64,000 bases of DNA from TPA_inf: Saccharomyces (taxonomy: Eukaryota): contig BK006938.2 in NCBI GenBank assembly GCA_000146045.2, positions 480,001 to 544,000 on the forward strand, given 5' to 3'. The notes under the pieces were generated by a model. That model saw nothing but the letters and a program-made list of their open reading frames with translations. It had not been told where the DNA came from and searched no databases. The translations under genes were made by a program, and so were the position numbers. Every line of letters begins with the position of its first letter. The stretch's first letter is position 1. Positions 39,743-58,767 of this stretch are shown here, in pieces.

Positions 39743-39826
39743 GGAGGGTTGGCCGAGTGGTCTAAGGCGGCAGACTTAAGATCTGTTGGACGGTTGTCCG
39801 CGCGAGTTCGAACCTCGCATCCTTCA
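39743..39826 (+). tRNA. tL(UAA)D: tRNA-Leu, anticodon UAA (tL(UAA)D), intron-less, long variable arm
   Basis: GGAGGGTTGGCCGAGTGGTCTAAGGCGGCAGACTTAAGATCTGTTGGACGGTTGTCCGCGCGAGTTCGAACCTCGCATCCTTCA; anticodon loop CTTAAGA; T7 terminator at 39835-39841. Confidence 0.9.
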
Positions 39827-39899
39827 ATAACTTATTTTTTTCCTCAATCTTCGATATTAGACATTTTTTTTTTCCTATGCCTCCCTTTTCCAAGTAATG

Positions 39900-39922
39900 T
39901 TTTTTTTTTTTTTTTTTTTTTT
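39900..39922. repeat. T23 homopolymer tract 75 bp downstream of tL(UAA)
   Basis: direct read. Confidence 0.9.
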
Positions 39923-40173
39923 AGCTCCTCTCACAAAAGTACTGAGGACTGAAATGTAAAAACTAATAACACAATAGAAATAATCATATGATGATATAGA
40001 AAAGAAGAGAGGAGACAATCATAATATTATACGAACTCATGGCTTTCCTTATGGGAAATTCTACATTCTCGATAGTGACCCTGGTATATTCAATATACTT
40101 AGGAATAACTGTCTTTCATAACAATGGCGGCCATACGATTACCGTATTATCCACCTATTCTTGATATTAAACT

Positions 40174-40476
40174 GGAAATTCTGTGAATTTTGTGATAATT
40201 GTTGGAATTCCATTGTTAATAAAGGCTATAATATTAGGTATACAGGGTTTACTAGAAGTTCTCATCGAGGATTTAGGAATCCTCAAAATGGAATCTATAT
40301 TTCTACATGCTAATGTTACGATTATTCCTCATTTCGTTTTATATGTTTCATTATCCTATTACATTATCAATCCTTGCATTTCAGCTTCCTCTAACTTCGA
40401 AGCTTTCCATAACTTCTGTCATCATCTAATACCGTATATGATAATATATTGATAGTATGACCACTAGTTGATACAC
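40174..40476 (-). repeat. Solo delta LTR (about 300 bp, slightly truncated or diverged at the ends)
   Basis: tggaaattctgtgaattttgtgataattgttggaattccattgttaataaaggctataatattagg... is colinear with the other deltas in minus orientation. Confidence 0.75.
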
Positions 40477-40783
40477 TGTTGGAATAAAAACCAACTATCA
40501 TCTACTAACTAGTATTTATGTTACTAGTATATTATCATATACGGTGTTAGAAGATGACACAAATGATGAGAAATAGTCATCTAAATTAGTGGAAACTGAA
40601 ACGCAAGGATTGATAATGTAATAGGATAATGAAACATATAAAACTGAATGAGGAATGATCGTAATATTAGCATGTAGAAATATAGATTCCATTATGGGGA
40701 TTCCTATATCCTGGAGGAGAACTTCTAGTATATCTACATACCTAATATTATTGCCTTATTAAAAATGGAATCCCAACAATTAC
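40477..40783 (+). repeat. Solo delta LTR in the opposite (plus) orientation, truncated about 25 bp before its U5 end
   Basis: Begins TGTTGGAATAAAAACCAACTATCATCTACTAACTAG... immediately after the previous delta; ends ...AAAAATGGAATCCCAACAATTACA. Confidence 0.8.
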
Positions 40784-40834
40784 ATCAGAATCCGCACAAT
40801 TATCATAGATGATAATGGATTTTTATTCCAACAA
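40784..40834 (-). repeat. Terminal ~50-bp fragment of a third delta (its U3 end)
   Basis: tcagaatccgcacaattatcatagatgataatggatttttattccaaca matches the last ~50 bp of the minus-oriented deltas. Confidence 0.6.
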
Positions 40835-40971
40835 TCAGCATGCCTTTTGTATTTCTGTAAAGAAGAGTAAACCATAACCTAAGTCAATATCAAATTTAGG
40901 ATTGATGAATTTTCTACTCAAAATGCTTTGTTCAAGAAGGTACGAAAGAAGGTTCCAATCGTCCATTTTAG

Positions 40972-41043
40972 GGTCCTATAGTGTAGTGGTTATCACTTTC
41001 GGTTTTGATCCGGACAACCCCGGTTCGAATCCGGGTAGGACCT
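40972..41043 (+). tRNA. tQ(UUG)D: tRNA-Gln, anticodon UUG (tQ(UUG)D)
   Basis: GGTCCTATAGTGTAGTGGTTATCACTTTCGGTTTTGATCCGGACAACCCCGGTTCGAATCCGGGTAGGACCT; anticodon loop TTTTGAT; T-runs directly downstream. Confidence 0.9.
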
Positions 41044-41313
41044 TTTCTATTTTTTAACCCTCTTGTTTTATTTTTCTTTCTTGGCTTTGAATTGCACAGC
41101 CCCTCGCATTTTTTTTCGATACCCTGAAAAAAGGAAAAAGGCGAAGAAATAAGGGCAATTTCTATTTAAAAATTATACAAGCTCGATTTTTCATTTTCTC
41201 CTTCCCCTCTCGCCCCTCCCAGTTTTCAACTGTATTTAAATGTTTCTCAGTTATGTTGTGAATTAAAATAATCCTAATTGTCAACTAAAAAAGTCTAAGT
41301 TAGCAATACCAAA

Positions 41314-41662: not shown

Positions 41663-42928
<1,266 letters not shown>

Positions 42929-43210
42929 CCTGTAAATGAGGGAAAAATGCAAATAATCTTGAATGATACTCAAAACTTTTGATTTATTGTAATTTCTTTC
43001 TGAACCATATTTATTACATTCAAACTTTTTTTTTTTTGCCTTTTATAAAAAAAAATACTTATAAGAAAAGAGAAAGAAAATGACAGTTTTCTATGTATCA
43101 TTAAATAAACATCCATATACAAATATAGCGTTATGTTTTACTTTTATTATTTACATGCATAGAAGTGTTGGCAAAATTCTTTACGAGCCACGGGGCTGCT
43201 ATTTCAGGTT

Positions 43211-44713
43211 TTATTTCCATCTTAAGCCATCGTTAACTTCTTCACATTTTCTTTCACAAACAATTTTACATAGCGATTGGATACCCAGTTTCCCTCTTCT
43301 AGAAGGAATCACATTGGCAAAGTGATTTAGTACTTCTCTTTCGGTAACTTTGGCGCCAGTGTCATCATTCGTTCTCTTTTCAATATACGCAGCGATTTCC
43401 TGTTCTGTAGGCAATTGGTATTTAGAATGGTAGGGATATTGAGTCCAAGTAACATTCGAGGTATTTCTTAGTAATGACATTGGTAGCGATGGTTTAGGAG
43501 ATGTGATAGATGTCAACTGAGATACAAATAACTGTTCCTTCTTTGTCCATGGATACGGGACCCTTTGTTTATCAATAAGTTTATGCTTTGTGGCTTCAGA
43601 GAATTCCACCAAAGAGTCCTGGTTCATGCACATGTTAGCTGCTGTGTATAAGTCTCTTTTGATAGCAGATTCTATGTGATCTCTGGAATTCTCTTGCACC
43701 AATCTCAAGGCGATTTGAAGAGAGGATGGTGACTTGGTTAACAATTTCGTTTTGATTTCTTGTGCGAAAGCCTTACCTTCCGCAGAACCTTCATATTGAC
43801 GTAAGTTATTCATTATGTCTTCAATAGTACCATTTTTAGACAAGTTAAAACAGGCTTCAATAACGTTTAATTTCTCGTTAGAATACTTGAAAACATAATC
43901 TTTTGGTAATGGTGATACGAATTCGTCGATGGATTCGTTAACCATCCCGAAGAAGTATGCAGATTGTGGATCGTTATTAAAAGGGGGGCTAATTTCACCT
44001 AATCTTTTCTGCAAAGCATCTAAATTTTCACTACTGACGTAATGAGACGCTAAGCCGAGCATATAAGCGTCTGCTCCTGTGACTACTTCTCCTGTAAGAC
44101 ATAGATACAGGGCCATTTGTGAGTTTGAGTTAGCCAATGTCACGATTCTAGGGAGAGCAAAAGTTGAGCCTACATCTGGAAAAAAACCAATGTCCATCTC
44201 GGGCATGGCCCATTTGGTGTTTTCTGTAGCAATTCTAAAGGGCGTGTGAATGGATAGACCAACGCCGCCACCCATGGTGATACCGTCCATGAAGGTAACA
44301 ATTGGTTTCAAGTAAGTTGCTATTTGAAAATTCAAAGAATATTCATCAGTAAAAAATTTGATGGACTTGGCAAATTCTTTGTTAAAATTGAATATTGCCA
44401 CAGTAGCTACATCACCACCAGCACAGAACGAACGTGGTCGGTTGGATGACTTTAAAATGACTAAGTTTGTAGTATCGCTCTTTGCATACTCGTTCAAAGT
44501 CTTGAACATGGATTCTGACATTTCGGCGTTCAAAGCATTGAGCTTTTTGGGCCTATTTAGCGTGATAACTCTAGCTGTATCTTGAACGGTAAATAGCACA
44601 GGTGGTGCGTCGGTGACATTTAGCTGGGGTTGAGTAGTCATGAATGTACGTGTGGTAGTTTTAAATCCGTATTTAGACGACAATTGGGCACATTTTAGCG
44701 TATTTCTGAGCAT
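43211..44713 (-). CDS. EHD3: Mitochondrial 3-hydroxyisobutyryl-CoA hydrolase (enoyl-CoA hydratase/isomerase family), 500 aa
   Basis: ATG confirmed (CAT 44711-44713); crotonase-fold motifs (..FCAGGDV.., ..MGGGVGL..); N-terminal mitochondrial presequence-like. Confidence 0.88.
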
Positions 44714-45439
44714 TATTTGTGGTGGCTAAACAGAACCAAGTATTATATAAATGAGGATTCCCGTACACAGGCGCAGGAAACAAGCTGCTCTTATCTTCTC
44801 GGCTACCTCATCAATCATTTGGCTCCGAGGTTTAACACTTTTCTTTGCACTTGCCTCTCCAATTCCGAAGTTCCGAAGGGTGACCCGGATTGTGTTACTA
44901 AACAAGAGAAGATTGGTAGAAAACGCAATGGGTCAGTTTGGCTGGCTGAATCCTTGGAATCCTGTAAGGCTGCTTACTACAAATGGGTTAGGGACTGTTC
45001 TCTTCGGCATAATGTTTAAGTGTTAGTTTTGAGATATTACATGTTTAAGAATTCAAAAAACCTTTCTATTAACCCAGGAAACGATGCGGATAAGGCGAGC
45101 TTCTCCGACCCATGAGCACAATAGATCAAGTTCTGTTCTAGTTGTTGGTTAGTAGTTTATGGAATGCTAATGGCATTAGTGATGTAGGAATATTTTTGGT
45201 GTAGTGTATGGGTGTTGTGAAAATATTTGCCATTTGAATTTTTTTCGGCGCTTTTCTTTTTTTTTTTCTTTTTTTTTTAGCTTGAATTATCGATGAATGA
45301 TGAAATGACTCTTAATGAACTTCGAAGTTATATATACAGCCACTTTTTTGTTTAGAAAGAAAAGTATAATTATCTTACATACATTGATTTATTGCTCTGT
45401 CCTTCCTCCGAGAAATCCGTAATAAACTTCAATAGCATA

Positions 45440-47215
45440 ATGTCTCAACAAGATAATGTCAAAGCCGCCGCTGAAGGTGTTGCTAACCTACATCTCGACG
45501 AAGCTACCGGGGAAATGGTCTCCAAGTCTGAATTGAAGAAGCGTATCAAGCAAAGACAAGTCGAAGCTAAAAAGGCCGCCAAAAAGGCTGCCGCTCAACC
45601 AAAACCGGCTTCCAAAAAAAAAACAGATTTGTTCGCTGACCTGGATCCATCGCAATATTTCGAAACAAGATCTCGCCAAATTCAAGAATTGAGAAAGACT
45701 CACGAACCAAATCCATACCCACACAAGTTTCACGTTTCTATATCCAATCCTGAGTTCTTGGCCAAATATGCGCATTTGAAAAAAGGTGAAACCTTACCTG
45801 AAGAGAAGGTTTCAATTGCTGGTAGAATTCATGCCAAAAGAGAATCTGGCTCCAAATTGAAATTCTATGTTCTTCACGGTGATGGTGTTGAAGTTCAATT
45901 GATGTCCCAATTGCAGGACTACTGCGACCCAGACTCTTACGAAAAGGATCACGACCTTTTGAAAAGGGGTGATATCGTTGGTGTCGAGGGTTACGTCGGA
46001 AGAACTCAACCAAAGAAAGGTGGTGAAGGTGAAGTTTCCGTCTTCGTTAGCAGAGTGCAATTATTGACACCATGTTTGCACATGTTACCTGCCGACCACT
46101 TTGGTTTCAAAGACCAGGAAACCAGATACAGAAAGCGTTATTTGGATTTGATCATGAACAAAGACGCCAGAAACCGTTTTATTACCCGTTCTGAAATTAT
46201 CCGTTACATCAGAAGATTTTTGGACCAAAGAAAGTTTATTGAAGTAGAAACTCCAATGATGAACGTTATTGCTGGTGGTGCTACCGCTAAGCCATTTATT
46301 ACCCACCATAATGACCTTGATATGGACATGTACATGAGAATTGCTCCAGAATTGTTCTTGAAACAATTGGTTGTCGGTGGTTTGGATCGTGTTTACGAAA
46401 TTGGTAGACAATTCAGAAATGAAGGTATCGATATGACACATAATCCAGAATTCACCACTTGTGAGTTTTATCAAGCCTACGCTGATGTTTATGATTTGAT
46501 GGATATGACTGAATTGATGTTTTCAGAAATGGTCAAGGAGATCACTGGTTCTTATATTATCAAATACCATCCGGACCCTGCTGATCCAGCCAAAGAACTA
46601 GAATTGAACTTTTCTAGACCATGGAAGAGAATCAACATGATTGAAGAATTAGAAAAGGTATTCAACGTTAAGTTCCCATCTGGTGATCAATTACATACAG
46701 CTGAGACTGGTGAATTTTTGAAAAAGATTCTTGTCGACAACAAATTAGAATGTCCACCTCCACTAACTAATGCTCGTATGTTAGATAAGCTTGTCGGTGA
46801 ATTAGAAGATACATGTATCAACCCAACTTTCATTTTTGGCCACCCTCAAATGATGTCTCCATTAGCCAAGTACTCAAGAGATCAACCGGGTCTATGTGAG
46901 CGTTTCGAGGTCTTTGTAGCTACAAAGGAAATTTGTAATGCCTACACTGAATTGAACGATCCATTTGACCAAAGGGCACGTTTCGAAGAACAAGCTAGAC
47001 AAAAGGATCAAGGTGATGACGAAGCTCAATTAGTCGATGAAACCTTCTGTAATGCTCTAGAATACGGTTTACCACCAACTGGTGGTTGGGGTTGTGGTAT
47101 TGATAGACTGGCCATGTTCTTGACCGACTCCAACACCATTAGAGAAGTCTTATTGTTCCCAACTTTGAAGCCTGATGTTTTGAGAGAGGAAGTCAAAAAG
47201 GAAGAAGAAAATTAA
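45440..47215 (+). CDS. KRS1: Cytosolic lysyl-tRNA synthetase, 591 aa
   Basis: Track ORF starts at TTG 45392; true ATG at 45440 ([21 protein letters not shown]...); class IIb aaRS, Lys-rich N-terminal extension. Confidence 0.93.
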
Positions 47216-47421
47216 GCTAAAAGATATTAGAACATATTGTATAATGTAAGTATTATTATTCTAAGATAGAGCTTGAATATGAAAACTCATTACCTAAATT
47301 TGTTTATGTTCGGTAGCCCTAAAGGAGCTTAATTAAAAATAAAAAAATCTAAACTATTACGTAAGGGGGAGAAGGGATAAGGGATGCAAAAGGAAAGGCA
47401 CTCAATAAATTGCCCTCCTTA

Positions 47422-50400
47422 TTAATGCTTGACACTGATATTAATTTCGCTTTGAAGGGTTGTGGATGTGCTATACGCTTCAAATGGATCGTGTTTACTG
47501 CTTCGCTCCAAATCGTTTTCCGAATTGTGAGCTCTCTGAGTTTTGAAATAGCGCCTCTTTCCACACTTGTAAAGTTCAGCACCTATCCAGAATGCAATTG
47601 TGAATGCAATGGCGAGACCCCATTCAGCACCAATTGGTTTATGCAAAAACACTTTATCATTAATAACCGGAATATAGACGACGGGGAAGGCTGACACAAA
47701 TCCAAAAATGATTGACCAGAACAAAAACTGGTTTCCCCAAATACTTCTGAAAAATTCCTTGACTGGGCTGTCAGTGTCTGGATGCATTCTGAAAAAAGAT
47801 CTTCTCATGTCAACCACTTCCCAAGCCAGAATCAAAGCGCACCACGTCATAGTTGCGAAAGCCGCAGAACGTGATCTATAAACATCACGACAACTGCTGT
47901 TATAGGTGCCATCACAATCGTGCCCCAATCTACCACTATTTATTCCATACAGTGATCCAGTAAATGAAGCCATACAGGACCCTGTCATTATAATCCCATA
48001 TGCAAATGTATCTATAATAACCTCCCATGTGAAAATACCAACCTCTGAATCATTAGGAGGTCTATCCATCAAATCTGGAGCAGCCTTTTCTAGACCTAGC
48101 CCCATAGCAGGAAAACAAGAGGTGACGACAATAATCCACAATACTTCCACTGGTGATAAGGGAAATACTGATTTTCCGTTCTCATCTCTGAATACTAAAC
48201 CAATGATCAAATACAAAGCCTGAGCAACATTTTCTGCCAATAATTGTAGGACAAACTTCTGAATGTTATCCGTCATCCTACGACCTTCTTCGACAGCATT
48301 CAAAATAGAAGCAAAATTGTCATCGCTTAGAACAATATCAGACGCTTCTTTGGAAACATCTGAACCATTAATACCCATTGCAATACCAACATTGGCCATT
48401 TTTAGAGATGGAGAATCGTTAACACCGTCACCTGTCATTGCGCAGAACTTCTTCCTACGGTGTAAAGCTTCGATCATTCTCACCTTAGTCTGCGGAGAGC
48501 AACGTGCAATAACTAAAGGTAAGACGGGCAAATCGTCCACTTCCTCCTCACTTAGTCCGTCAAACTGAGATCCGGTCATGACCATACTGTCAACAATCTC
48601 TTGGGAGTAATGGTACAAATTGGTGGGTAAGATGCCAACCTCCTGAGCGATAGCCTTTGCTGTACCCACAAAGTCCCCAGTTAACATATGAACGTTAATA
48701 CCAGCTTGGTGAAACTTCTTGACTGCACCGGCAGTCTCATTTCTGGGTGGATCGTAAATACCAATCAACCCTAGGAAAACTAAATCACTTTCTGCGGTGG
48801 CCCTGTTTGAAGTAATGTTTTTCAATTGATCGTCATTCACTTGATCTTTAGTGAAAGATTTGGAGGCAAAACCCAAGACTCTTAAACCCTCATTTGATAG
48901 ACTGTAAACATTTTTCCTTATCGTTTCGACATCACAATCGGTCAATGGTGTGATTTTTACACCATCCTTACCATACCAAGAACTGCAACAACTGATGATG
49001 CTTTCGAAAGCACCCTTGCCATAAATATTATATGTTTCGTTGTGATTGTTGTAGTAGACAGATGACATTCGCTTCACAGTTGAGTCGAATGGGAATTCAG
49101 CAATATGTTCGAATTGTGCACTGCCAGGCTTCTCATTGTGTTGTGAAAGAGAGGATTGGTCATTCTCATTACTTTGATTAGTCGATTTCTCACCGGTAAG
49201 GGCATTGTGAGGCAAGTCCATCTTAGTAGCAAACACTTGAATCGCAATTTCTGTTGGGTCACCATGAGCTTTCCAACAGTCAGTTGCGTCATCTTTGAAA
49301 ACAGTAGCAATGTTAGCCAAAGTGGCGGTTTCGAGCCATTTTTGAAATAGATCCATGTCAATATCTTCTGGTAAATCTTTTTCGTATAGGCGATCCTTGA
49401 AATTCTGGAGAATACCAACGTCACCATCCTCATTATGAGAATATTCGTAAGGTGAAAACCTTGGAATCAAACTCACGTTGCCCTCATTGGGATTAAAGGG
49501 GTCATCAGAATTCGAGATAGTTATGGTACCAAAGCGAGGGATCCAAATTTGCCTCGCTAACATTTTACCCTGTGTAAGAGTACCGGTCTTGTCAGAACAG
49601 ATATCGTTAACGGCACCTAAAGCTTCCAGAGAATCTAATTTTCTTACAATAACGTTTCTAGAAACCATAACAGCAGCCCCAACAGACATGGTGATGGTCA
49701 AGACAACGACTAATGAAGAGGGAATCATGGATAGGGCCACACAAATGGCATAGATAGCTACCCTTTTATCTACGTCAAACTTTTGAGAGGCCATGACGAT
49801 GATAGCAAAAAGTACGGCAATCCAGAAAAGCAATACCGCCAACTTAGACAGTTTCCTGTGCAGGGGCGTACCGACATTTGTACCTAAAAATGCACCAGTA
49901 ACTTTCTTTGTAGATATCCATGTATTCTGTAACCACGACTTACTAGGATCGCGGGAAATGAGACCTGAATCACCTTGTAGAGATTTTGCAATTTTACCAA
50001 TTTCACTATTCAAAGCTGTCTTGATGACAATACCCTTGGCTCTTCCCTTGACAACGGCGGATGAAGAAAATGCTAAATTCAAACGATCACCCACGGAGGT
50101 TTCTTCTTCTTTTCCAAACACTAAGTTGGCGTCTTTGGAGACAGGCAAAGATTCACCGGTCAGTAGTGATTCATCAGTATCAAAATTCTTAGTTTCAATT
50201 AAACGCAAATCAGCAGGAATAGTATCACCGACCTTCACCAGACAAATATCACCTGGAACCACATCTTTTGAGTTTATAGTCTCACTTTTCCCGTTCCTAA
50301 TAACATGAGCATTGGGAGAGCTCAAGTTTTTCAAAGAGTTCATTGTCTTGGTAGCCTTATATTCTTGAACTAGGCCAATGAGCACATTGACCGCGATAAC

Positions 50401-50697
50401 AAAAGAAATAACGCCACCAGTAATCCAGTCGCGCACAGCGAAAGAGATCGCCATGGATATTACCAAGACCATAATCATTGCATTACATACCTGATGGAGG
50501 ACCATTGCTTTATAGTCAATTTTGGTATCATCACCCAATGTGTTCTCTCCCACTGCTTTCAGTCTGCGGAGGGACTCATCTTGAGTAAGACCTTCAGTCA
50601 GACTTGTGCCTATAAATTCAGCGGCTTCTTCTGTAGTCAATGTGTGATAAGCATTGAATTCTTCATTATTGTTTTCTTTGACAGTTCCCTCGCTCAT
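47422..50697 (-). CDS. ENA5: P-type (type IID) Na+/Li+ efflux ATPase, 1091 aa; first unit of the tandem array, with a diverged C-terminus
   Basis: ATG confirmed (CAT 50695-50697); DKTGTLT phosphorylation motif, TGDFVGTA, GDGVNDSP; C-terminal ...AHNSENDLERSSKHDPFEAYSTSTTLQSEINISVKH differs from the other two copies. Confidence 0.9.
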   Translation of the reverse strand: MSEGTVKENNNEEFNAYHTLTTEEAAEFIGTSLTEGLTQDESLRRLKAVGENTLGDDTKIDYKAMVLHQVCNAMIMVLVISMAISFAVRDWITGGVISFVIAVNVLIGLVQEYKATKTMNSLKNLSSPNAHVIRNGKSETINSKDVVPGDICLVKVGDTIPADLRLIETKNFDTDESLLTGESLPVSKDANLVFGKEEETSVGDRLNLAFSSSAVVKGRAKGIVIKTALNSEIGKIAKSLQGDSGLISRDPSKSWLQNTWISTKKVTGAFLGTNVGTPLHRKLSKLAVLLFWIAVLFAIIVMASQKFDVDKRVAIYAICVALSMIPSSLVVVLTITMSVGAAVMVSRNVIVRKLDSLEALGAVNDICSDKTGTLTQGKMLARQIWIPRFGTITISNSDDPFNPNEGNVSLIPRFSPYEYSHNEDGDVGILQNFKDRLYEKDLPEDIDMDLFQKWLETATLANIATVFKDDATDCWKAHGDPTEIAIQVFATKMDLPHNALTGEKSTNQSNENDQSSLSQHNEKPGSAQFEHIAEFPFDSTVKRMSSVYYNNHNETYNIYGKGAFESIISCCSSWYGKDGVKITPLTDCDVETIRKNVYSLSNEGLRVLGFASKSFTKDQVNDDQLKNITSNRATAESDLVFLGLIGIYDPPRNETAGAVKKFHQAGINVHMLTGDFVGTAKAIAQEVGILPTNLYHYSQEIVDSMVMTGSQFDGLSEEEVDDLPVLPLVIARCSPQTKVRMIEALHRRKKFCAMTGDGVNDSPSLKMANVGIAMGINGSDVSKEASDIVLSDDNFASILNAVEEGRRMTDNIQKFVLQLLAENVAQALYLIIGLVFRDENGKSVFPLSPVEVLWIIVVTSCFPAMGLGLEKAAPDLMDRPPNDSEVGIFTWEVIIDTFAYGIIMTGSCMASFTGSLYGINSGRLGHDCDGTYNSSCRDVYRSRSAAFATMTWCALILAWEVVDMRRSFFRMHPDTDSPVKEFFRSIWGNQFLFWSIIFGFVSAFPVVYIPVINDKVFLHKPIGAEWGLAIAFTIAFWIGAELYKCGKRRYFKTQRAHNSENDLERSSKHDPFEAYSTSTTLQSEINISVKH

Positions 50698-53600
50698 CGA
50701 AAATTTTCAATTATGTGTACAAAGATTTTTCCTCAGTGAGTACATACGTTATCTGATAAGCAAAATACGAATATGAATAACGTTGATTTGGTTAACGTAT
50801 TCTCGATGTAAAGGATGAAGGAAAATAAAATTCTTTCCTCTTTCTTTGCCTCGAGAGATAATATGGAGATTTAAAGAAGAAAACATCAGCCTCACAATTA
50901 CACCGCGCGGTGATATAAGGATTTTGATAAAAGAATATATGTGAGTTGAATTTGAACGTCCTGGAAGGAAAAGTCTTGACGAAATAAACGCATTAATTTT
51001 CTAATTCTACAAGAATTTAACTAATCCTGTATTGAAATTCATAATTTTAGTTAAGAACCCTGTCATACGCGTAACGTAACTGTATCTGTTTCATGATTTA
51101 CAACGGCAGCAATAAGAGTATAGCAGTAGTATTCCTCTAAGACATATTTGAACTAGAAAACATACTATTTAGGCTTGTTTATGTTCAGAACCTGTGAAAA
51201 GTTCGTTTATAGTAAATAAAAAAACAAATAACAAAATAAATGTAAATATCTAAATATATGAAATGAATAAGGAAAAAGATAGGGAGCACTTAATAGGCCC
51301 TGCCTATCATTGTTTAATACCAATATTAACTTCTGTATGGATTGTAGTAGAAGTACTATACGCTTCGAATGGATCGCGCTTATTGTTACTCTCCAAATCA
51401 TTCTCCGGGTTGTGCGCTCTCTGAGTTTTGAAATAGCGCCTCTTTCCACACTTGTAAAGTTCAGCACCTATCCAGAATGCAATTGTGAATGCAATGGCGA
51501 GACCCCATTCAGCACCAATTGGTTTATGCAAAAACACTTTATCATTAATAACCGGAATATAGACGACGGGGAAGGCTGACACAAATCCAAAAATGATTGA
51601 CCAGAACAAAAACTGGTTTCCCCAAATACTTCTGAAAAATTCCTTGACTGGGCTGTCAGTGTCTGGATGCATTCTGAAAAAGGATCTTCTCATGTCAACC
51701 ACTTCCCAAGCCAGAATCAAAGCGCACCACGTCATGGTTGCGAAAGCCGCAGAACGTGATCTATAAACATCACGACAACTGCTGTTATAGGTGCCATCAC
51801 AATCGTGCCCCAATCTACCACTATTTATTCCATACAGTGATCCAGTAAATGAAGCCATACAGGACCCTGTCATTATAATCCCATATGCAAATGTATCTAT
51901 AATAACCTCCCACGTGAAAATACCAACCTCTGAATCATGAGGAGGTCTATCCATCAAATCTGGAGCAGCCTTTTCTAGACCTAGCCCCATAGCAGGAAAA
52001 CAAGAGGTGACGACAATAATCCACAATACTTCCACTGGTGATAAGGGAAATACTGATTTTCCGTTCTCATCTCTGAATACTAAACCAATGATCAAATACA
52101 AAGCCTGAGCAACATTTTCTGCCAATAATTGTAGGACAAACTTCTGAATGTTATCCGTCATCCTACGACCTTCTTCGACAGCATTCAAAATAGAAGCAAA
52201 ATTGTCATCGCTTAGAACAATATCAGACGCTTCTTTGGAAACATCTGAACCATTAATACCCATTGCAATACCAACATTGGCCATTTTTAGAGATGGAGAA
52301 TCGTTAACACCGTCACCTGTCATTGCGCAGAACTTCTTCCTACGGTGTAAAGCTTCGATCATTCTCACCTTAGTCTGCGGAGAGCAACGTGCAATAACTA
52401 AAGGTAAGACGGGCAAATCGTCCACTTCCTCCTCACTTAGTCCGTCAAACTGAGATCCGGTCATGACCATACTGTCAACAATCTCTTGGGAGTAATGGTA
52501 CAAATTGGTGGGTAAGATGCCAACCTCCTGAGCGATAGCCTTTGCTGTACCCACAAAGTCCCCAGTTAACATATGAACGTTAATACCAGCTTGGTGAAAC
52601 TTCTTGACTGCACCGGCAGTCTCATTTCTGGGTGGATCGTAAATACCAATCAACCCTAGGAAAACTAAATCACTTTCTGCGGTGGCCCTGTTTGAAGTAA
52701 TGTTTTTCAATTGATCGTCATTCACTTGATCTTTAGTGAAAGATTTGGAGGCAAAACCCAAGACTCTTAAACCCTCATTTGATAGACTGTAAACATTTTT
52801 CCTTATCGTTTCGACATCACAATCGGTCAATGGTGTGATTTTTACACCATCCTTACCATACCAAGAACTGCAACAACTGATGATGCTTTCGAAAGCACCC
52901 TTGCCATAAATATTATATGTTTCGTTGTGATTGTTGTAGTAGACAGATGACATTCGCTTCACAGTTGAGTCGAATGGGAATTCAGCAATATGTTCGAATT
53001 GTGCACTGCCAGGCTTCTCATTGTGTTGTGAAAGAGAGGATTGGTCATTCTCATTACTTTGATTAGTCGATTTCTCACCGGTAAGGGCATTGTGAGGCAA
53101 GTCCATCTTAGTAGCAAACACTTGAATCGCAATTTCTGTTGGGTCACCATGAGCTTTCCAACAGTCAGTTGCGTCATCTTTGAAAACAGTAGCAATGTTA
53201 GCCAAAGTGGCGGTTTCGAGCCATTTTTGAAATAGATCCATGTCAATATCTTCTGGTAAATCTTTTTCGTATAGGCGATCCTTGAAATTCTGGAGAATAC
53301 CAACGTCACCATCCTCATTATGAGAATATTCGTAAGGTGAAAACCTTGGAATCAAACTCACGTTGCCCTCATTGGGATTAAAGGGGTCATCAGAATTCGA
53401 GATAGTTATGGTACCAAAGCGAGGGATCCAAATTTGCCTCGCTAACATTTTACCCTGTGTAAGAGTACCGGTCTTGTCAGAACAGATATCGTTAACGGCA
53501 CCTAAAGCTTCCAGAGAATCTAATTTTCTTACAATAACGTTTCTAGAAACCATAACAGCAGCCCCAACAGACATGGTGATGGTCAAGACAACGACTAATG

Positions 53601-56600
53601 AAGAGGGAATCATGGATAGGGCCACACAAATGGCATAGATAGCTACCCTTTTATCTACGTCAAACTTTTGAGAGGCCATGACGATGATAGCAAAAAGTAC
53701 GGCAATCCAGAAAAGCAATACCGCCAACTTAGACAGTTTCCTGTGCAGGGGCGTACCGACATTTGTACCTAAAAATGCACCAGTAACTTTCTTTGTAGAT
53801 ATCCATGTATTCTGTAACCACGACTTACTAGGATCGCGGGAAATGAGACCTGAATCACCTTGTAGAGATTTTGCAATTTTACCAATTTCACTATTCAAAG
53901 CTGTCTTGATGACAATACCCTTGGCTCTTCCCTTGACAACGGCGGATGAAGAAAATGCTAAATTCAAACGATCACCCACGGAGGTTTCTTCTTCTTTTCC
54001 AAACACTAAGTTGGCGTCTTTGGAGACAGGCAAAGATTCACCGGTCAGTAGTGATTCATCAGTATCAAAATTCTTAGTTTCAATTAAACGCAAATCAGCA
54101 GGAATAGTATCACCGACCTTCACCAGACAAATATCACCTGGAACCACATCTTTTGAGTTTATAGTCTCACTTTTCCCGTTCCTAATAACATGAGCATTGG
54201 GAGAGCTCAAGTTTTTCAAAGAGTTCATTGTCTTGGTAGCCTTATATTCTTGAACTAGGCCAATGAGCACATTGACCGCGATAACAAAAGAAATAACGCC
54301 ACCAGTAATCCAGTCGCGCACAGCGAAAGAGATCGCCATGGATATTACCAAGACCATAATCATTGCATTACATACCTGATGGAGGACCATTGCTTTATAG
54401 TCAATTTTGGTATCATCACCCAATGTGTTCTCTCCCACTGCTTTCAGTCTGCGGAGGGACTCATCTTGAGTAAGACCTTCAGTCAGACTTGTGCCTATAA
54501 ATTCAGCGGCTTCTTCTGTAGTCAATGTGTGATAAGCATTGAATTCTTCATTATTGTTTTCTTTGACAGTTCCCTCGCTCATCGAAAATTTTCAATTATG
54601 TGTACAAAGATTTTTCCTCAGTGAGTACATACGTTATCTGATAAGCAAAATACGAATATGAATAACGTTGATTTGGTTAACGTATTCTCGATGTAAAGGA
54701 TGAAGGAAAATAAAATTCTTTCCTCTTTCTTTGCCTCGAGAGATAATATGGAGATTTAAAGAAGAAAACATCAGCCTCACAATTACACCGCGCGGTGATA
54801 TAAGGATTTTGATAAAAGAATATATGTGAGTTGAATTTGAACGTCCTGGAAGGAAAAGTCTTGACGAAATAAACGCATTAATTTTCTAATTCTACAAGAA
54901 TTTAACTAATCCTGTATTGAAATTCATAATTTTAGTTAAGAACCCTGTCATACGCGTAACGTAACTGTATCTGTTTCATGATTTACAACGGCAGCAATAA
55001 GAGTATAGCAGTAGTATTCCTCTAAGACATATTTGAACTAGAAAACATACTATTTAGGCTTGTTTATGTTCAGAACCTGTGAAAAGTTCGTTTATAGTAA
55101 ATAAAAAAACAAATAACAAAATAAATGTAAATATCTAAATATATGAAATGAATAAGGAAAAAGATAGGGAGCACTTAATAGGCCCTGCCTATCATTGTTT
55201 AATACCAATATTAACTTCTGTATGGATTGTAGTAGAAGTACTATACGCTTCGAATGGATCGCGCTTATTGTTACTCTCCAAATCATTCTCCGGGTTGTGC
55301 GCTCTCTGAGTTTTGAAATAGCGCCTCTTTCCACACTTGTAAAGTTCAGCACCTATCCAGAATGCAATTGTGAATGCAATGGCGAGACCCCATTCAGCAC
55401 CAATTGGTTTATGCAAAAACACTTTATCATTAATAACCGGAATATAGACGACGGGGAAGGCTGACACAAATCCAAAAATGATTGACCAGAACAAAAACTG
55501 GTTTCCCCAAATGCTTCTGAAAAATTCCTTGACTGGGCTGTCAGTGTCTGGATGCATTCTGAAAAAGGATCTTCTCATGTCAACCACTTCCCAAGCCAGA
55601 ATCAAAGCGCACCACGTCATGGTTGCGAAAGCCGCAGAACGTGATCTATAAACATCACGACAACTGCTGTTATAGGTGCCATCACAATCGTGCCCCAATC
55701 TACCACTATTTATTCCATACAGTGATCCAGTAAATGAAGCCATACAGGACCCTGTCATTATAATCCCATATGCAAATGTATCTATAATAACCTCCCACGT
55801 GAAAATACCAACCTCTGAATCATGAGGAGGTCTATCCATCAAATCTGGAGCAGCCTTTTCTAGACCTAGCCCCATAGCAGGAAAACAAGAGGTGACGACA
55901 ATAATCCACAATACTTCCACTGGTGATAAGGGAAATACTGATTTTCCGTTCTCATCTCTGAATACTAAACCAATGATCAAATACAAAGCCTGAGCAACAT
56001 TTTCTGCCAATAATTGTAGGACAAACTTCTGAATGTTATCCGTCATCCTACGACCTTCTTCGACAGCATTCAAAATAGAAGCAAAATTGTCATCGCTTAG
56101 AACAATATCAGACGCTTCTTTGGAAACATCTGAACCATTAATACCCATTGCAATACCAACATTGGCCATTTTTAGAGATGGAGAATCGTTAACACCGTCA
56201 CCTGTCATTGTGCAGAACTTCTTCCTACGGTGTAAAGCTTCGATCATTCTCACCTTAGTCTGCGGAGAGCAACGTGCAATAACTAAAGGTAAGACGGGCA
56301 AATCGTCCACTTCCTCCTCACTTAGTCCGTCAAACTGAGATCCGGTCATGACCATACTGTCAACAATCTCTTGGGAGTAATGGTACAAATTGGTGGGTAA
56401 GATGCCAACCTCCTGAGCGATAGCCTTTGCTGTACCCACAAAGTCCCCAGTTAACATATGAACGTTAATACCAGCTTGGTGAAACTTCTTGACTGCACCG
56501 GCAGTCTCATTTCTGGGTGGATCGTAAATACCAATCAACCCTAGGAAAACTAAATCACTTTCTGCGGTGGCCCTGTTTGAAGTAATGTTTTTCAATTGAT

Positions 56601-58197
56601 CGTCATTCACTTGATCTTTAGTGAAAGATTTGGAGGCAAAACCCAAGACTCTTAAACCCTCATTTGATAGACTGTAAACATTTTTCCTTATCGTTTCGAC
56701 ATCACAATCGGTCAATGGTGTGATTTTTACACCATCCTTACCATACCAAGAACTGCAACAACTGATGATGCTTTCGAAAGCACCCTTGCCATAAATATTA
56801 TATGTTTCGTTGTGATTGTTGTAGTAGACAGATGACATTCGCTTCACAGTTGAGTCGAATGGGAATTCAGCAATATGTTCGAATTGTGCACTGCCAGGCT
56901 TCTCATTGTGTTGTGAAAGAGAGGATTGGTCATTCTCATTACTTTGATTAGTCGATTTCTCACCGGTAAGGGCATTGTGAGGCAAGTCCATCTTAGTAGC
57001 AAACACTTGAATCGCAATTTCTGTTGGGTCACCATGAGCTTTCCAACAGTCAGTTGCGTCATCTTTGAAAACAGTAGCAATGTTAGCCAAAGTGGCGGTT
57101 TCGAGCCATTTTTGAAATAGATCCATGTCAATATCTTCTGGTAAATCTTTTTCGTATAGGCGATCCTTGAAATTCTGGAGAATACCAACGTCACCATCCT
57201 CATTATGAGAATATTCGTAAGGTGAAAACCTTGGAATCAAACTCACGTTGCCCTCATTGGGATTAAAGGGGTCATCAGAATTCGAGATAGTTATGGTACC
57301 AAAGCGAGGGATCCAAATTTGCCTCGCTAACATTTTACCCTGTGTAAGAGTACCGGTCTTGTCAGAACAGATATCGTTAACGGCACCTAAAGCTTCCAGA
57401 GAATCTAATTTTCTTACAATAACGTTTCTAGAAACCATAACAGCAGCCCCAACAGACATGGTGATGGTCAAGACAACGACTAATGAAGAGGGAATCATGG
57501 ATAGGGCCACACAAATGGCATAGATAGCTACCCTTTTATCTACGTCAAACTTTTGAGAGGCCATGACGATGATAGCAAAAAGTACGGCAATCCAGAAAAG
57601 CAATACCGCCAACTTAGACAGTTTCCTGTGCAGGGGCGTACCGACATTTGTACCTAAAAATGCACCAGTAACTTTCTTTGTAGATATCCATGTATTCTGT
57701 AACCACGACTTACTAGGATCGCGGGAAATGAGACCTGAATCACCTTGTAGAGATTTTGCAATTTTACCAATTTCACTATTCAAAGCTGTCTTGATGACAA
57801 TACCCTTGGCTCTTCCCTTGACAACGGCGGATGAAGAAAATGCTAAATTCAAACGATCACCCACGGAGGTTTCTTCTTCTTTTCCAAACACTAAGTTGGC
57901 GTCTTTGGAGACAGGCAAAGATTCACCGGTCAGTAGTGATTCATCAGTATCAAAATTCTTAGTTTCAATTAAACGCAAATCAGCAGGAATAGTATCACCG
58001 ACCTTCACCAGACAAATATCACCTGGAACCACATCTTTTGAGTTTATAGTCTCACTTTTCCCGTTCCTAATAACATGAGCATTGGGAGAGCTCAAGTTTT
58101 TCAAAGAGTTCATTGTCTTGGTAGCCTTATATTCTTGAACTAGGCCAATGAGCACATTGACCGCGATAACAAAAGAAATAACGCCACCAGTAATCCA
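47530..58197. repeat. Homogenised block of the ENA tandem array: two complete 3,885-bp direct-repeat units (47530..51414, 51415..55299) plus a partial third (55300..58197)
   Basis: Period 3,885 bp from the ORF spacing (47422, 51307, 55192); the 609-bp spacers 50698..51306 and 54583..55191 are identical; identity decays at both edges. Confidence 0.9.
51307..54582 (-). CDS. ENA2: P-type Na+/Li+ efflux ATPase, 1091 aa; middle unit
   Basis: Identical to the ENA5 copy over about 1,055 codons; shares its C-terminus and downstream flank with ENA1. Confidence 0.9.
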   Translation of the reverse strand: MSEGTVKENNNEEFNAYHTLTTEEAAEFIGTSLTEGLTQDESLRRLKAVGENTLGDDTKIDYKAMVLHQVCNAMIMVLVISMAISFAVRDWITGGVISFVIAVNVLIGLVQEYKATKTMNSLKNLSSPNAHVIRNGKSETINSKDVVPGDICLVKVGDTIPADLRLIETKNFDTDESLLTGESLPVSKDANLVFGKEEETSVGDRLNLAFSSSAVVKGRAKGIVIKTALNSEIGKIAKSLQGDSGLISRDPSKSWLQNTWISTKKVTGAFLGTNVGTPLHRKLSKLAVLLFWIAVLFAIIVMASQKFDVDKRVAIYAICVALSMIPSSLVVVLTITMSVGAAVMVSRNVIVRKLDSLEALGAVNDICSDKTGTLTQGKMLARQIWIPRFGTITISNSDDPFNPNEGNVSLIPRFSPYEYSHNEDGDVGILQNFKDRLYEKDLPEDIDMDLFQKWLETATLANIATVFKDDATDCWKAHGDPTEIAIQVFATKMDLPHNALTGEKSTNQSNENDQSSLSQHNEKPGSAQFEHIAEFPFDSTVKRMSSVYYNNHNETYNIYGKGAFESIISCCSSWYGKDGVKITPLTDCDVETIRKNVYSLSNEGLRVLGFASKSFTKDQVNDDQLKNITSNRATAESDLVFLGLIGIYDPPRNETAGAVKKFHQAGINVHMLTGDFVGTAKAIAQEVGILPTNLYHYSQEIVDSMVMTGSQFDGLSEEEVDDLPVLPLVIARCSPQTKVRMIEALHRRKKFCAMTGDGVNDSPSLKMANVGIAMGINGSDVSKEASDIVLSDDNFASILNAVEEGRRMTDNIQKFVLQLLAENVAQALYLIIGLVFRDENGKSVFPLSPVEVLWIIVVTSCFPAMGLGLEKAAPDLMDRPPHDSEVGIFTWEVIIDTFAYGIIMTGSCMASFTGSLYGINSGRLGHDCDGTYNSSCRDVYRSRSAAFATMTWCALILAWEVVDMRRSFFRMHPDTDSPVKEFFRSIWGNQFLFWSIIFGFVSAFPVVYIPVINDKVFLHKPIGAEWGLAIAFTIAFWIGAELYKCGKRRYFKTQRAHNPENDLESNNKRDPFEAYSTSTTIHTEVNIGIKQ

Positions 58198-58467
58198 ATC
58201 ATGCATGGCAAACGAGATTATCATGGATATTAGAAGGACCATGATCATGGCATTACATACCTGATGGAGGACCATTGCCTTGTAATCAATTTTAGTGTCA
58301 TCACCCAATGTGTTCTCACCCACTGTTTTCAATCTGTGGACGAACTCATCTTGGGTCAAACCTTCAGTTAGACTTGTGCCTATGAATTCAGCGGCTTCTT
58401 CTGCAGTCAGCGTGTGATAAGCATTGAATTCTGCATTATTGTTTTCCTTAGTAGTTCCTTCGCCCAT
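55192..58467 (-). CDS. ENA1: P-type Na+/Li+ efflux ATPase, 1091 aa; promoter-proximal unit with a diverged first ~90 codons (MGEGTTKENNNAEFNAYHTLTAEE...) and a unique promoter
   Basis: Coding identity with ENA2 starts at about 58197 and runs leftwards; one internal difference at 56211 (Thr vs Ala). Confidence 0.9.
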   Translation of the reverse strand: MGEGTTKENNNAEFNAYHTLTAEEAAEFIGTSLTEGLTQDEFVHRLKTVGENTLGDDTKIDYKAMVLHQVCNAMIMVLLISMIISFAMHDWITGGVISFVIAVNVLIGLVQEYKATKTMNSLKNLSSPNAHVIRNGKSETINSKDVVPGDICLVKVGDTIPADLRLIETKNFDTDESLLTGESLPVSKDANLVFGKEEETSVGDRLNLAFSSSAVVKGRAKGIVIKTALNSEIGKIAKSLQGDSGLISRDPSKSWLQNTWISTKKVTGAFLGTNVGTPLHRKLSKLAVLLFWIAVLFAIIVMASQKFDVDKRVAIYAICVALSMIPSSLVVVLTITMSVGAAVMVSRNVIVRKLDSLEALGAVNDICSDKTGTLTQGKMLARQIWIPRFGTITISNSDDPFNPNEGNVSLIPRFSPYEYSHNEDGDVGILQNFKDRLYEKDLPEDIDMDLFQKWLETATLANIATVFKDDATDCWKAHGDPTEIAIQVFATKMDLPHNALTGEKSTNQSNENDQSSLSQHNEKPGSAQFEHIAEFPFDSTVKRMSSVYYNNHNETYNIYGKGAFESIISCCSSWYGKDGVKITPLTDCDVETIRKNVYSLSNEGLRVLGFASKSFTKDQVNDDQLKNITSNRATAESDLVFLGLIGIYDPPRNETAGAVKKFHQAGINVHMLTGDFVGTAKAIAQEVGILPTNLYHYSQEIVDSMVMTGSQFDGLSEEEVDDLPVLPLVIARCSPQTKVRMIEALHRRKKFCTMTGDGVNDSPSLKMANVGIAMGINGSDVSKEASDIVLSDDNFASILNAVEEGRRMTDNIQKFVLQLLAENVAQALYLIIGLVFRDENGKSVFPLSPVEVLWIIVVTSCFPAMGLGLEKAAPDLMDRPPHDSEVGIFTWEVIIDTFAYGIIMTGSCMASFTGSLYGINSGRLGHDCDGTYNSSCRDVYRSRSAAFATMTWCALILAWEVVDMRRSFFRMHPDTDSPVKEFFRSIWGNQFLFWSIIFGFVSAFPVVYIPVINDKVFLHKPIGAEWGLAIAFTIAFWIGAELYKCGKRRYFKTQRAHNPENDLESNNKRDPFEAYSTSTTIHTEVNIGIKQ

Positions 58468-58730: not shown

Positions 58731-58734
<4 letters not shown>

Positions 58735-58763
<29 letters not shown>
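58735..58763. repeat. (TA)14 microsatellite in the ENA1 promoter, about -270 to -300
   Basis: direct read. Confidence 0.9.

Positions 58764-58767
<4 letters not shown>

Follow-up and report, generated by a model that had tools for sequence, protein, structure and literature searches.

Arrays of ribosomal DNA are the textbook case of concerted evolution, their units being more alike within an array than between lineages through unequal exchange and gene conversion. The ENA genes of Saccharomyces, whose products are plasma-membrane type IID P-type ATPases that expel Na+, Li+ and K+, resemble rDNA in this respect, but some features differ: rDNA comprises about 150 units homogenised over the long term and across species, whereas the ENA array is recent and consists of only a few units, with edges that, unlike those of rDNA, are seams between sources. 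The near-identical tandem transporter pair HXT6/HXT7, in which we know of no interspecies mosaic, provides a second parallel, although it usually has two copies. Like the ENA array, this pair recombines, amplifies under selection and yields circles (PMC4856073, 10.1101/2020.02.11.943357). A third is the CUP1 metallothionein array on chromosome VIII, with near-identical tandem units and a strain-variable copy number that tracks tolerance of a toxic ion (PMC4417123); it too grows through unequal recombination or break-induced replication and gives off circles (PMC4417123, PMC12008805, PMC6890164). CUP1 differs, however, in having several origins, with distinct breakpoints and unit lengths and five repeat types (PMC4417123), whereas ENA arrays share one unit. 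The CUP1 unit contains a replication origin, whereas ENA circles were reported without one (10.1101/2020.02.11.943357), and the ENA array, unlike CUP1, is of mixed species origin.

The stretch of DNA analysed here (the window, 64,000 nucleotides) contains the known three-copy ENA (PMR2) sodium-pump array of S. cerevisiae S288C, ENA1-ENA2-ENA5. The ORF listing gives three tandem open reading frames of 1091 residues on the minus strand, which had been correctly recognised as P-type ATPase genes: ENA5 (YDR038C, 47422-50697), the last unit, adjoining KRS1; ENA2 (YDR039C, 51307-54582), the middle unit; and ENA1 (YDR040C, 55192-58467), the first. The names proposed for them were also right, as their proteins match the reference entries (NP_010323.3, NP_010324.3 and NP_010325.1, respectively) exactly. 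ENA5 carries the Pfam P-type ATPase domain set, with the DKTGTLT motif at residue 369, and ENA1 scored 2012 bits against TIGR01523, the model for fungal K/Na-efflux type IID ATPases (cut-off 645 bits). Among the three array genes only ENA1 has the long native promoter; this regulated promoter serves ENA1 alone, and the 609-bp spacer drives the other units. The array was earlier described by Haro (1991), Garciadeblas (1993) and Wieland (1995), as cited in PMC4417123 and PMC6262259, and later studied by Doniger (2008), Warringer (2011) and Strope (2015). The array itself, its 3,885-bp unit and its copy-number variation are already published, as are the introgression from S. paradoxus and genes recombinant between ENA6 and S. 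paradoxus (both in PMC2515631, PMC3116910, PMC4417123). Three points were not found in the accessible ENA literature: a map that assigns the S288C units to three sources at nucleotide level, the finding that the introgression ends at the ENA1/ENA2 boundary, and the placing of the ENA5 tail and spacer in a deep lineage.

Ungapped self-comparison gave a repeat period of exactly 3,885 bp, as had been noted; the ENA repeat of Strope et al. is 3,893 bp, against 3,885 in every array examined here. At this offset the window is self-identical from 47531 to 58197 (47530-58197 had been proposed) apart from six isolated SNPs, four private to ENA5 (47797, 47851, 48028 and 48054) and two private to ENA1 (55513 and 56211). 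ENA2 is a precise chimera of an ENA5-type 5' end (no differences from ENA5 over nucleotides 1-2643) and an ENA1-type 3' end (none from ENA1 over nucleotides 2956-3276). Spacer 1 (50698-51306, minus strand) comprises the ENA2 terminator and ENA5 promoter, and spacer 2 (54583-55191, minus strand) the ENA1 terminator and ENA2 promoter. Their identity, on which the original prediction depended, is 100% over 609 bp, and the spacers of ten other arrays have 0-2 differences from spacer 2.

The boundaries of this interior are sharp, as had been noted, and by far more so than chance would give: 41 of the 43 differences between ENA1 and ENA2 lie within the first 270 nucleotides (binomial P = 3e-42), and 30 of the 34 between ENA2 and ENA5 within the last 110 (P = 2e-40). 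At the 5' boundary 1,986 identical nucleotides give way abruptly to 15 mismatches in 52. The first 90 codons of ENA1 are 84.8% identical to those of ENA2 (41 mismatches in 270), within the expected 80-90%. The same range had been given for the promoter, where homology to the spacer spans only 49 nucleotides at 84% (86 at 74%) upstream of the ATG. Farther upstream no homology between the two was detectable, and the 609-bp spacer and long ENA1 promoter are unrelated beyond about 86-135 nucleotides.

Nucleotides 1-270 of ENA1 (58198-58467, minus strand) are native S. cerevisiae sequence. They match 268 of 270 sites (0.7% divergence) in L002, an allele called ENA6-type here because it is single-copy with native flanking sequence, and not from a published ENA6 sequence, and the native tract runs on into the native promoter and the RSM10 side. 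The same segment of ENA2 and ENA5, which is S. paradoxus-like with third-lineage sequence, shows 41 differences in 270. Sliding identity of the window to L002 is 98-100% rightwards from 58198 and 77-92% before it. At 58197/58198 a S. paradoxus-type introgressed block of ~15.6 kb (42600-58197, left end approximate) reaches its right end; the block is 77-92% identical to the native ENA6-type haplotype and takes in part of ARO3, EHD3, KRS1 and the ENA array. The junction itself falls within 58184-58197 (gene nucleotides 271-284), between the last ENA6-state site at nucleotide 270 and the first array-type site at nucleotide 285. Five 5' junction positions were found among strains, the others being at nucleotides 64-84, 249-255, 690-718 and 1776-1809. 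Paralogue divergence missed by concerted evolution was rejected as an account of the 5' edge, since nucleotides 1-270 of ENA1 and its promoter are native.

The 3' boundary has a different form, with four SNPs thinly spread over about 520 nucleotides and then a dense block. The last 110 nucleotides of ENA5 (47422-47531) and the first ~114 of its 3' flank make up a tract designated third-lineage, or Z (47308-47531, minus strand). The tail diverges by 25-28% from ENA6, S. paradoxus and the ENA1/2 tail, and by 20-24.5% from S. mikatae, S. kudriavzevii and S. eubayanus, and carries 0 of 6 clade-derived bases. From flank position 115 the sequence turns 99% S. paradoxus-like; this distal flank (47216-47307, minus strand) is continuous with KRS1 and 99.2% identical to S. 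paradoxus CBS432 (L029) over 392 nucleotides, a comparison that takes in the 3' end of KRS1. Identities of 80-90% had been given here too and proved too high, the last 36 codons of ENA5 being 72.5% identical to ENA2 (30 mismatches in 109 nucleotides) and the flank only about 50-70% identical to the spacer, with indels. At least three 3' junction positions occur among strains. This deep third lineage accounts for the ENA5 tail and for the greater part of the spacer; of the two edges, only the 3' edge behaves as an old copy unreached by exchange.

Each unit consists of a S. paradoxus-like backbone with two native ENA6-like patches and three third-lineage patches, and the tract pattern (C, P, Z) is identical in ENA1, ENA2 and ENA5. 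Many 90-nucleotide bins of the backbone have 0-2 differences from CBS432, from which the ENA1/2 tail differs by 0.9%. One ENA6-like patch lies at gene nucleotides 2076-2517 (minus strand; 52066-52507 in ENA2, 48181-48622 in ENA5, 55951-56392 in ENA1), and nucleotides 2071-2520 show 2 differences from ENA6 versus 29 from S. paradoxus. S. paradoxus states persist at nucleotides 2071-2340 of gene 2 in the BFP assembly (L001); as the ENA6 patch is missing from this part of the gene, it was acquired inside S. cerevisiae. The Z patch at nucleotides 2700-2793 (minus strand; 51790-51883 in ENA2, 47905-47998 in ENA5, 55675-55768 in ENA1) has 21-27 differences in 94 nucleotides from every reference species, and smaller Z patches occupy nucleotides 232-318 and 921-937. 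Spacer 1, read in gene orientation (minus strand), is likewise composite: positions 1-108 (51199-51306) are a S. paradoxus-like 3' flank, 97% identical to CBS432 over 108 nucleotides; positions 109-190 (51117-51198) are a diverged homologue of the distal flank; positions 191-474 (50833-51116) have no detectable homologue; and positions 475-609 (50698-50832) are a diverged proximal promoter and 5' UTR, 67-69% identical to the CBS432 proximal promoter. Neither the window nor the orthologous ENA loci of four other Saccharomyces species yielded any further spacer match. Native and introgressed alleles of the ENA gene differ by 8-11%. Because one mosaic is common to all three genes, homogenisation was recent and took place within S. 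cerevisiae; interior identity reflects recent unit amplification and exchange, not long-term concerted evolution.

Units were also counted in other strains, and the predicted instability of copy number was evident: arrays had 1, 2, 3, at least 4 or 6 units, differing in number but sharing the 3,885-bp period. The literature gives 1-14 copies (PMC4417123), with a 3,885-bp unit deleted in strain M22 (PMC2515631), circles arising from the array at high rate (bioRxiv 10.1101/2020.02.11.943357), experimental expansion via break-induced replication (PMC12008805) and duplication of the cluster under salt stress (PMC1570378). Internal units of a six-copy array (GCA_010356925.1) combine an ENA2-type 5' end with the ENA1-private SNPs 2257 and 2955, L009 is a one-copy collapse product carrying the ENA5 tail, and six independent read-set assemblies contain cyclic unitigs of 3,885 + k-1 nucleotides. 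Exact ENA1, ENA2 and ENA5 proteins occur on 14, 19 and 6 contigs, respectively. Differences number 0-6 within arrays versus up to 43 between them, the firm within-array evidence coming from S288C, the BFP assembly and the six-copy record; identical units in L008 and L010-L016, which from their accession series we take to be short-read assemblies, could be assembly consensus. Homogenisation is not universal, since the two BFP units differ at 295 sites. The locus carries a single ENA gene in S. paradoxus CBS432, in a second S. paradoxus-like genome, and in S. mikatae, S. kudriavzevii and S. eubayanus; the donor array was found in neither of the two S. paradoxus-type genomes compared.

The best explanation, to which we assign a probability of roughly 85%, is that a S. 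paradoxus-type array introgressed, recombined with ENA6 and was then homogenised through misaligned recombination between units. The incoming array haplotype would have recombined with the native single-copy ENA6 allele of S. cerevisiae, giving rise both to the 5' seam and to the ENA6 patch in the interior. Homologous recombination between misaligned units would then have spread one mosaic unit across the array and altered unit number, possibly by unequal exchange between sister chromatids or homologues, gene conversion, break-induced replication or loop-out of circles; gene conversion and repeated unequal crossover would look alike in these sequences. Because exchange can start only in sequence common to two units, the first unit's outer 5' end and the last unit's outer 3' end are never overwritten, and these ends would mark the limits of homogenisation. 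At its diverged edges the array joins DNA of different origins, and these edges are not simply unhomogenised old gene ends. The original prediction of unequal crossing-over or conversion is sustained as to recombination between units and changes of number in 3,885-bp steps, but not as to the 5' edge, which is no escaped end of a paralogue; its concerted evolution with diverged edges fits the 3' edge only, the 5' edge being native and the interior identity recent.

Pure recent serial amplification, with a mosaic unit doubled twice without homogenising exchange and the edges being flanks of the duplicated segment, is possible but rather doubtful. In its favour, 10.7 kb contain just six SNPs and the two spacers do not differ, one unequal crossover from a two-copy array reproduces ENA2 exactly, and the gene is called 'introgressed and serially amplified' by Warringer et al. 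(PMC3116910). The edges, however, are homologous to the unit (85% and 72.5%), so a founder must already have had two or more diverged ends, and the junctions are polymorphic at both sides. Identical ENA6 and third-lineage patches in the first and last genes, despite their different outer ends, require transfer between units.

Classical long-term concerted evolution, in which the interiors of three old paralogues were continually converted and the escaped edges date the duplication, is unlikely. It is consistent with an ENA5 tail and proximal flank that are 25-28% from the ENA1/2 tail and keep ancestral bases, and with a spacer promoter half just 67-74% identical to any ENA promoter. Against it stand the single ENA gene in each of five other Saccharomyces genomes compared and a 5' junction that ranges from nucleotide 64 to 1809 among strains; moreover, the native ENA6 patch is in all copies, and interior identity therefore postdates introgression. 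For the 5' edge it is refuted by the 99.3% match of ENA1 to the native single-copy allele and the coincidence of this edge with the introgression end.

That the repeat was collapsed or copy-pasted in the reference is very improbable. Tandem repeats of 3.9 kb assemble poorly and several comparison assemblies are presumably short-read, but six specific SNPs separate the three units, and two independent chromosome-scale assemblies (records of 1.54 and 1.55 Mb) reproduce them, with the ENA1-private SNPs recurring in internal units of both. ENA1 has 0 differences in L017 and ENA5 has 0 in L007 and L018, and the exact proteins recur on the many contigs counted above. Purifying selection keeping three coding sequences identical is scarcely credible even for a functional, conserved ATPase, being excluded by the non-coding 609-bp spacers, which, like the synonymous sites, are just as identical; native and introgressed alleles, moreover, differ by the 8-11% noted above.

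As the number of units in the array varies, so does the dosage of a gene for salt and lithium tolerance.

The three open reading frames on the minus strand of the window, ENA5 (47422-50697), ENA2 (51307-54582) and ENA1 (55192-58467), each comprise 1091 codons and encode products that match NP_010323.3, NP_010324.3 and NP_010325.1 exactly. The match to TIGR01523, the fungal K/Na-efflux type IID ATPase model, is full length (residues 11-1055) and scores ∼2012.5 bits against a curated cut-off of 645. Five Pfam P-type ATPase domains make up the complete domain set of the ENA genes, and the catalytic motifs TGES (residue 180), DKTGTLT (residue 369) and GDGVND (residue 756) are present in all three. 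The exact S288C protein matches, together with the domains, the TIGR01523 match and the motifs, settle the identity of the genes. In the syntenic loci the neighbours carry the ribosomal S10 and class II tRNA synthetase domains of the flanking genes RSM10 and KRS1. ENA pumps are known from the literature to export Na+ and Li+ (PMC3116910, PMC6262259), and the array proteins, sequence-identical to characterised ones, are expected to do the same.

Tandem Repeats Finder did not detect the array because the longest period it reports is 500, and the only report of the array in a general repeat search of the window was a 300-nt edge family. As the repeat finders had missed it, a self-comparison was scripted in which the window was aligned to itself without gaps at an offset of 3,885 and scored in 100-nt bins. 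Identity was 100% in nearly every bin between 47531 and 58197, as had been noted from the sequence alone, with four ENA5-private differences (47797, 47851, 48028 and 48054) and two ENA1-private differences (55513 and 56211) inside this block. The two spacers (50698-51306 and 54583-55191) are also identical, at 609 of 609 positions. A head-to-tail arrangement with a constant period of 3,885 and identical non-coding spacers is what characterises an array homogenised by gene conversion or unequal crossover. The same period was found in six cyclic contigs from read assemblies and at 12 further loci, in agreement with Doniger et al. 2008 and not with the repeat length of 3,893 bp given by Strope et al. 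2015 (PMC4417123).

The ends of the identical block are as sharp as originally predicted. Of the 43 differences between ENA1 and ENA2, 41 lie in the first 270 nt of the gene (P = 3e-42), and 30 of the 34 differences between ENA2 and ENA5 lie in the last 110 nt (P = 2e-40). At the 5' boundary the change is abrupt, with 15 mismatches in 52 nt directly after 1,986 identical bases; at the 3' boundary four sparse SNPs lead into the dense block of differences. The identity of 80-90% proposed for the ENA5 tail proved too high, the measured value against ENA2 being 72.5% (30 mismatches in 109 nt). The proposed likeness of the ENA1 promoter to the spacer holds for 49 nt at 84%, or 86 nt at 74%, with no alignment further out, and the 3' flank of ENA5 aligns only weakly with the spacer, with indels.

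To place the 5' edge we compared the window with a single-copy S. cerevisiae allele (L002, GCA_014132375.1), labelled ENA6-type from its single copy and native flanks; ENA6 is described in the literature as single-copy with native flanks (PMC3116910, PMC4417123). Over nucleotides 1-270 ENA1 differs from this allele at 2 positions, compared with 41 for ENA2 and ENA5. From nucleotide 271 onwards ENA1 lies 7.6-11.3% from it, the same distance as the other two genes. Rightwards of 58198, through the promoter and RSM10 and beyond, the window is 98-100% identical to the ENA6-type haplotype; identity is 77-92% over approximately 42,600-58,197 and returns to 98-100% outside this block, with sharp ends. 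The diverged block has been described as a S. paradoxus introgression comprising ARO3 (recombinant), EHD3, KRS1 and ENA (recombinant) (PMC2515631, PMC3116910, PMC4417123). Since ENA1 is native up to nucleotide 270 and identity jumps at 58198, the ENA1/ENA2 boundary is the right-hand end of this published introgression, and the 5' edge is a seam where native DNA meets introgressed DNA. The idea that the divergence at the edges is that of old paralogues thus fails here, where a native allele (0.7% from ENA6) is joined to introgressed sequence.

The position of the 5' junction is not constant among haplotypes. It lies at gene nucleotides 64-84 in a single-copy strain (L009), 249-255 in L013, 270-285 in S288C and in a six-copy record (L017), 690-718 in L010 and L012, and 1776-1809 in BFP (L001). 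At the left end of the block (window 42,550-42,800), inside a gene for a 370-residue DAHP synthase, identity to the ENA6-type haplotype falls from 99.6% to 89% within ∼500 nt. This gene is ARO3 according to the literature, and the steep drop within it indicates that, like ENA1, it is a native/introgressed chimera.

Two further features emerged from the comparison with the ENA6-type haplotype. A (TA)15.5 microsatellite is present in the ENA1 promoter (58734-58764), and over the 500-nt bin around it the window and the ENA6-type haplotype differ by 48 gapped positions; a poly(AT) length polymorphism in the ENA1 promoter has been reported for strain M22 (PMC6262259). For the stretch 39325-40801, alignments with the ENA6-type haplotype exist in either orientation (71-86% identity), and its structure differs between the haplotypes. 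The stretch has the look of a repeated element, for example solo LTRs, beside the genes for tRNA-Leu(taa) (39743-39826) and tRNA-Gln(ttg) (40971-41044).

The S. paradoxus-type sample consisted of two genomes, CBS432 (L029) and a second S. paradoxus-like genome (L031), in which the locus was found via a fast-evolving upstream neighbour gene. Both have a single ENA gene between RSM10 and KRS1, as do S. mikatae, S. kudriavzevii and S. eubayanus. Overall, the distance of the S288C units from CBS432 is 3.1-4.5%, compared with 7.5-11.3% from ENA6, and a large number of 90-nt bins show few or no differences. The tail shared by ENA1 and ENA2 is 0.9% from CBS432, the first 108 nt past their stop codons are 97% identical to the CBS432 flank, and the distal ENA5 flank with the 3' end of KRS1 is 99.2% identical. 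The block is therefore nearly identical to S. paradoxus, apart from internal patches that resemble ENA6 or neither source.

When every variable site was scored as ENA6-like, S. paradoxus-like or neither, ENA1, ENA2 and ENA5 gave the same pattern on a S. paradoxus-like backbone. All three genes have ENA6-like patches at nucleotides 1410-1428 and 2076-2517, and patches resembling neither source at ∼232-318, 921-937 and 2700-2793. Specific to one gene are the ENA6-like tract at nucleotides 1-270 of ENA1 and the tail at nucleotides 3168-3265 of ENA5, which resembles neither source. The larger ENA6-like patch has 2 differences from ENA6 and 29 from S. paradoxus, and the second gene of the BFP array keeps S. 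paradoxus-like states over nucleotides 2071-2340, within this patch. Together these comparisons indicate that the patch came from the native allele inside S. cerevisiae and then spread into every unit. This is the best evidence for a recent uniformity of the interior that arose by spread between units.

Exchange between units is also apparent in ENA2, which is identical to ENA5 over nucleotides 1-2643 and to ENA1 over nucleotides 2956-3276, a structure that would be expected of one unequal crossover in a two-unit array. In the six-unit array of GCA_010356925.1 (L007 and L017), ENA1 and ENA5 are unaltered and the internal units combine an ENA2-type 5' end with one or both of the ENA1-private SNPs (nucleotides 2257 and 2955). 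Across the arrays the unit counts were 1, 2, 3, at least 4 (L018) and 6, with several strains having 2. The one unit of L009 has an ENA5 tail, as would be expected of a collapse product. The 3' junction is also mobile: it is displaced by a single diagnostic site in L012 and by five such sites in L010, and lies mid-tail in the protein P0125. In six read-set assemblies the unit is collapsed to a cyclic contig of 3,885 + k-1 nt.

Over nucleotides 701-3150, units differ at 0-6 positions within arrays and at up to 43 between arrays. L008 and L016 each have 20-30 array-specific variants that are present in both units; both are presumably short-read assemblies, judging from their accession series. 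The exception is BFP, with 196 differences between its two units over the same interval. This array (BFP_1a, GCA_947370025.1, L001 10001-17161) has the standard 3,885-bp period and spacer, its two genes differ at 295 sites, and it is the least homogenised of the arrays examined. Its second gene has tracts of S. paradoxus-like sequence, and of sequence resembling neither source, that are longer than those of S288C. The possibility that the pair are un-homogenised paralogues was rejected, as gene 1 is ENA6-like to approximately nucleotide 1800 when compared with the ENA6-type allele.

These whole-unit steps and recombinant units bear out the copy-number instability that had been predicted, and published arrays range from 1 to 14 copies among 93 strains, with a single repeat type (PMC4417123). 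In strain M22 two units are fused by a 3,885-bp deletion (PMC2515631, PMC6262259), the ENA cluster was duplicated under salt stress (PMC1570378), expansion via break-induced replication has been described (PMC12008805), and circles arise from ENA arrays at a high rate (10.1101/2020.02.11.943357). At positions ∼58-68 of the spacer 50698-51306, in gene orientation, the sequence ATTTACATTTA fits the 11-bp yeast ARS consensus WTTTAYRTTTW. This match was spotted by eye and is probably due to chance, since ENA circles are reported to have no replication origin.

Composite origin, a shared mosaic, a chimeric middle gene, recombinant units in expanded arrays and moving junctions are all demonstrated by these comparisons. 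Misaligned homologous recombination between units would both spread variants and change the number of units, possibly by unequal exchange, conversion, break-induced replication or loop-out. Such exchange would be limited to sequence common to two units, so that the outer ends of the first and last units would persist. The mechanism originally proposed, recurrent unequal crossing-over or gene conversion, is right for the interior and for the copy-number instability, and the meaning originally given to the 5' edge is wrong; for the 3' edge an old copy is a plausible reading that fits the sequence, and a foreign origin is possible.

The ENA5 tail forms the 3' edge. It differs by 25.5-28% from the ENA1/ENA2 tail, ENA6 and S. 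paradoxus, and its distances to S. mikatae, S. kudriavzevii and S. eubayanus are 24.5%, 22.7% and 20%, respectively. As protein sequence, the tail is closer to those of S. uvarum and S. eubayanus than to those of S. cerevisiae, S. paradoxus and S. mikatae. Past its first 108 nt, the spacer consists of weakly conserved homologues (67-74%) of the flank and proximal promoter and of sequence with no detectable homologue. Its central ∼285 nt had no match in the window, the 3' end of KRS1, or the ENA promoters of S. cerevisiae, S. paradoxus, S. mikatae, S. kudriavzevii and S. eubayanus. For a deep lineage this is unsurprising, since the S. eubayanus promoter gave no match to the ENA1 promoter either.

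The ancestry of this sequence was assessed by pooling the four tracts resembling neither source (296 nt) and counting sites at which S. kudriavzevii and S. eubayanus agree on one base and ENA6, S. paradoxus and S. mikatae on another. The tracts had 1 clade-derived base, 9 ancestral and 2 other, compared with 71 derived and 4 ancestral in the rest of the gene (Fisher P = 6e-10). These tracts were picked for being different, which inflates their distances but does not explain the ancestral character of the differences.

We suggest, with a probability of roughly 0.4, that the array keeps remnants of a third, very old and undescribed ENA lineage. On this tentative reading the remnants would comprise three short patches in each gene, the tail of ENA5 together with the proximal part of its 3' flank, and ∼500 nt of each spacer, within which lies the promoter that drives ENA2 and ENA5. 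These sequences are at about the same distance (24-28%) from the ENA genes of all five species compared (S. cerevisiae, S. paradoxus, S. mikatae, S. kudriavzevii and S. eubayanus), and hold ancestral bases where the cerevisiae-paradoxus-mikatae clade has shared derived ones.

The donor may have been an ancient duplicate or a long-maintained alternative haplotype, its body almost entirely overwritten by a S. paradoxus-type gene. Some arrays of S. paradoxus may still have an old duplicate: two ENA variants of that species are mentioned by Warringer et al. (PMC3116910), and three types by Strope et al. (PMC4417123). The donor may instead belong to an unsampled deep Saccharomyces lineage. Among 14 ENA cluster members examined, none was richer in such sequence. 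Under either source, at least three gene pools would have contributed to the chimeric array. ENA protein fragments labelled S. cerevisiae (P0137, P0140 and P0142-P0144) group with the ENA proteins of S. kudriavzevii/S. mikatae or of S. eubayanus and not with the S. cerevisiae cluster; these may come from hybrids or further introgressions at the locus.

In the 3' flanks, both switches between S. paradoxus-like and putative third-lineage sequence fall at one 30-nt segment that is absent in CBS432 and present in ENA6, the spacer and the ENA5 flank (window 47216-47421 and 51077-51306, compared with L029 16012-16199 and L031 12214-12402). L031 probably lacks the segment as well, its flank being of equal length with the same 108-nt match. 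The coincidence hints that heterology at this segment halted exchange tracts. Single-crossover integration of a circular third-lineage unit into a S. paradoxus-type chromosome was rejected in its simple version, because the spacer and the ENA5 flank each have the segment that S. paradoxus is missing.

The array is a known one, its locus and behaviour being well covered in the literature, and a deep third lineage is the only possibly new element. A literature search for concerted evolution and ENA1 found no paper arguing for such evolution here, a reference-list entry being its single hit. Adaptive copy-number variation and interspecies introgression in yeast are commonly illustrated by the ENA locus, and natural variation in Na+ and Li+ tolerance is largely explained by ENA dosage and allele type. 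For strain work, the array is recombinogenic, short reads collapse it to a 3,885-bp cyclic contig, and only ENA1 has the regulated promoter. When a tandem array is read from sequence alone, abrupt steps in identity at its ends need not date the duplication; in this array the 5' step is an introgression seam and the 3' step, if the third-lineage reading holds, a relic of a different, much older lineage. Were that lineage real and traceable, a small gene array would have acted as a long-lived store of old alleles, erased only in part by homogenisation.
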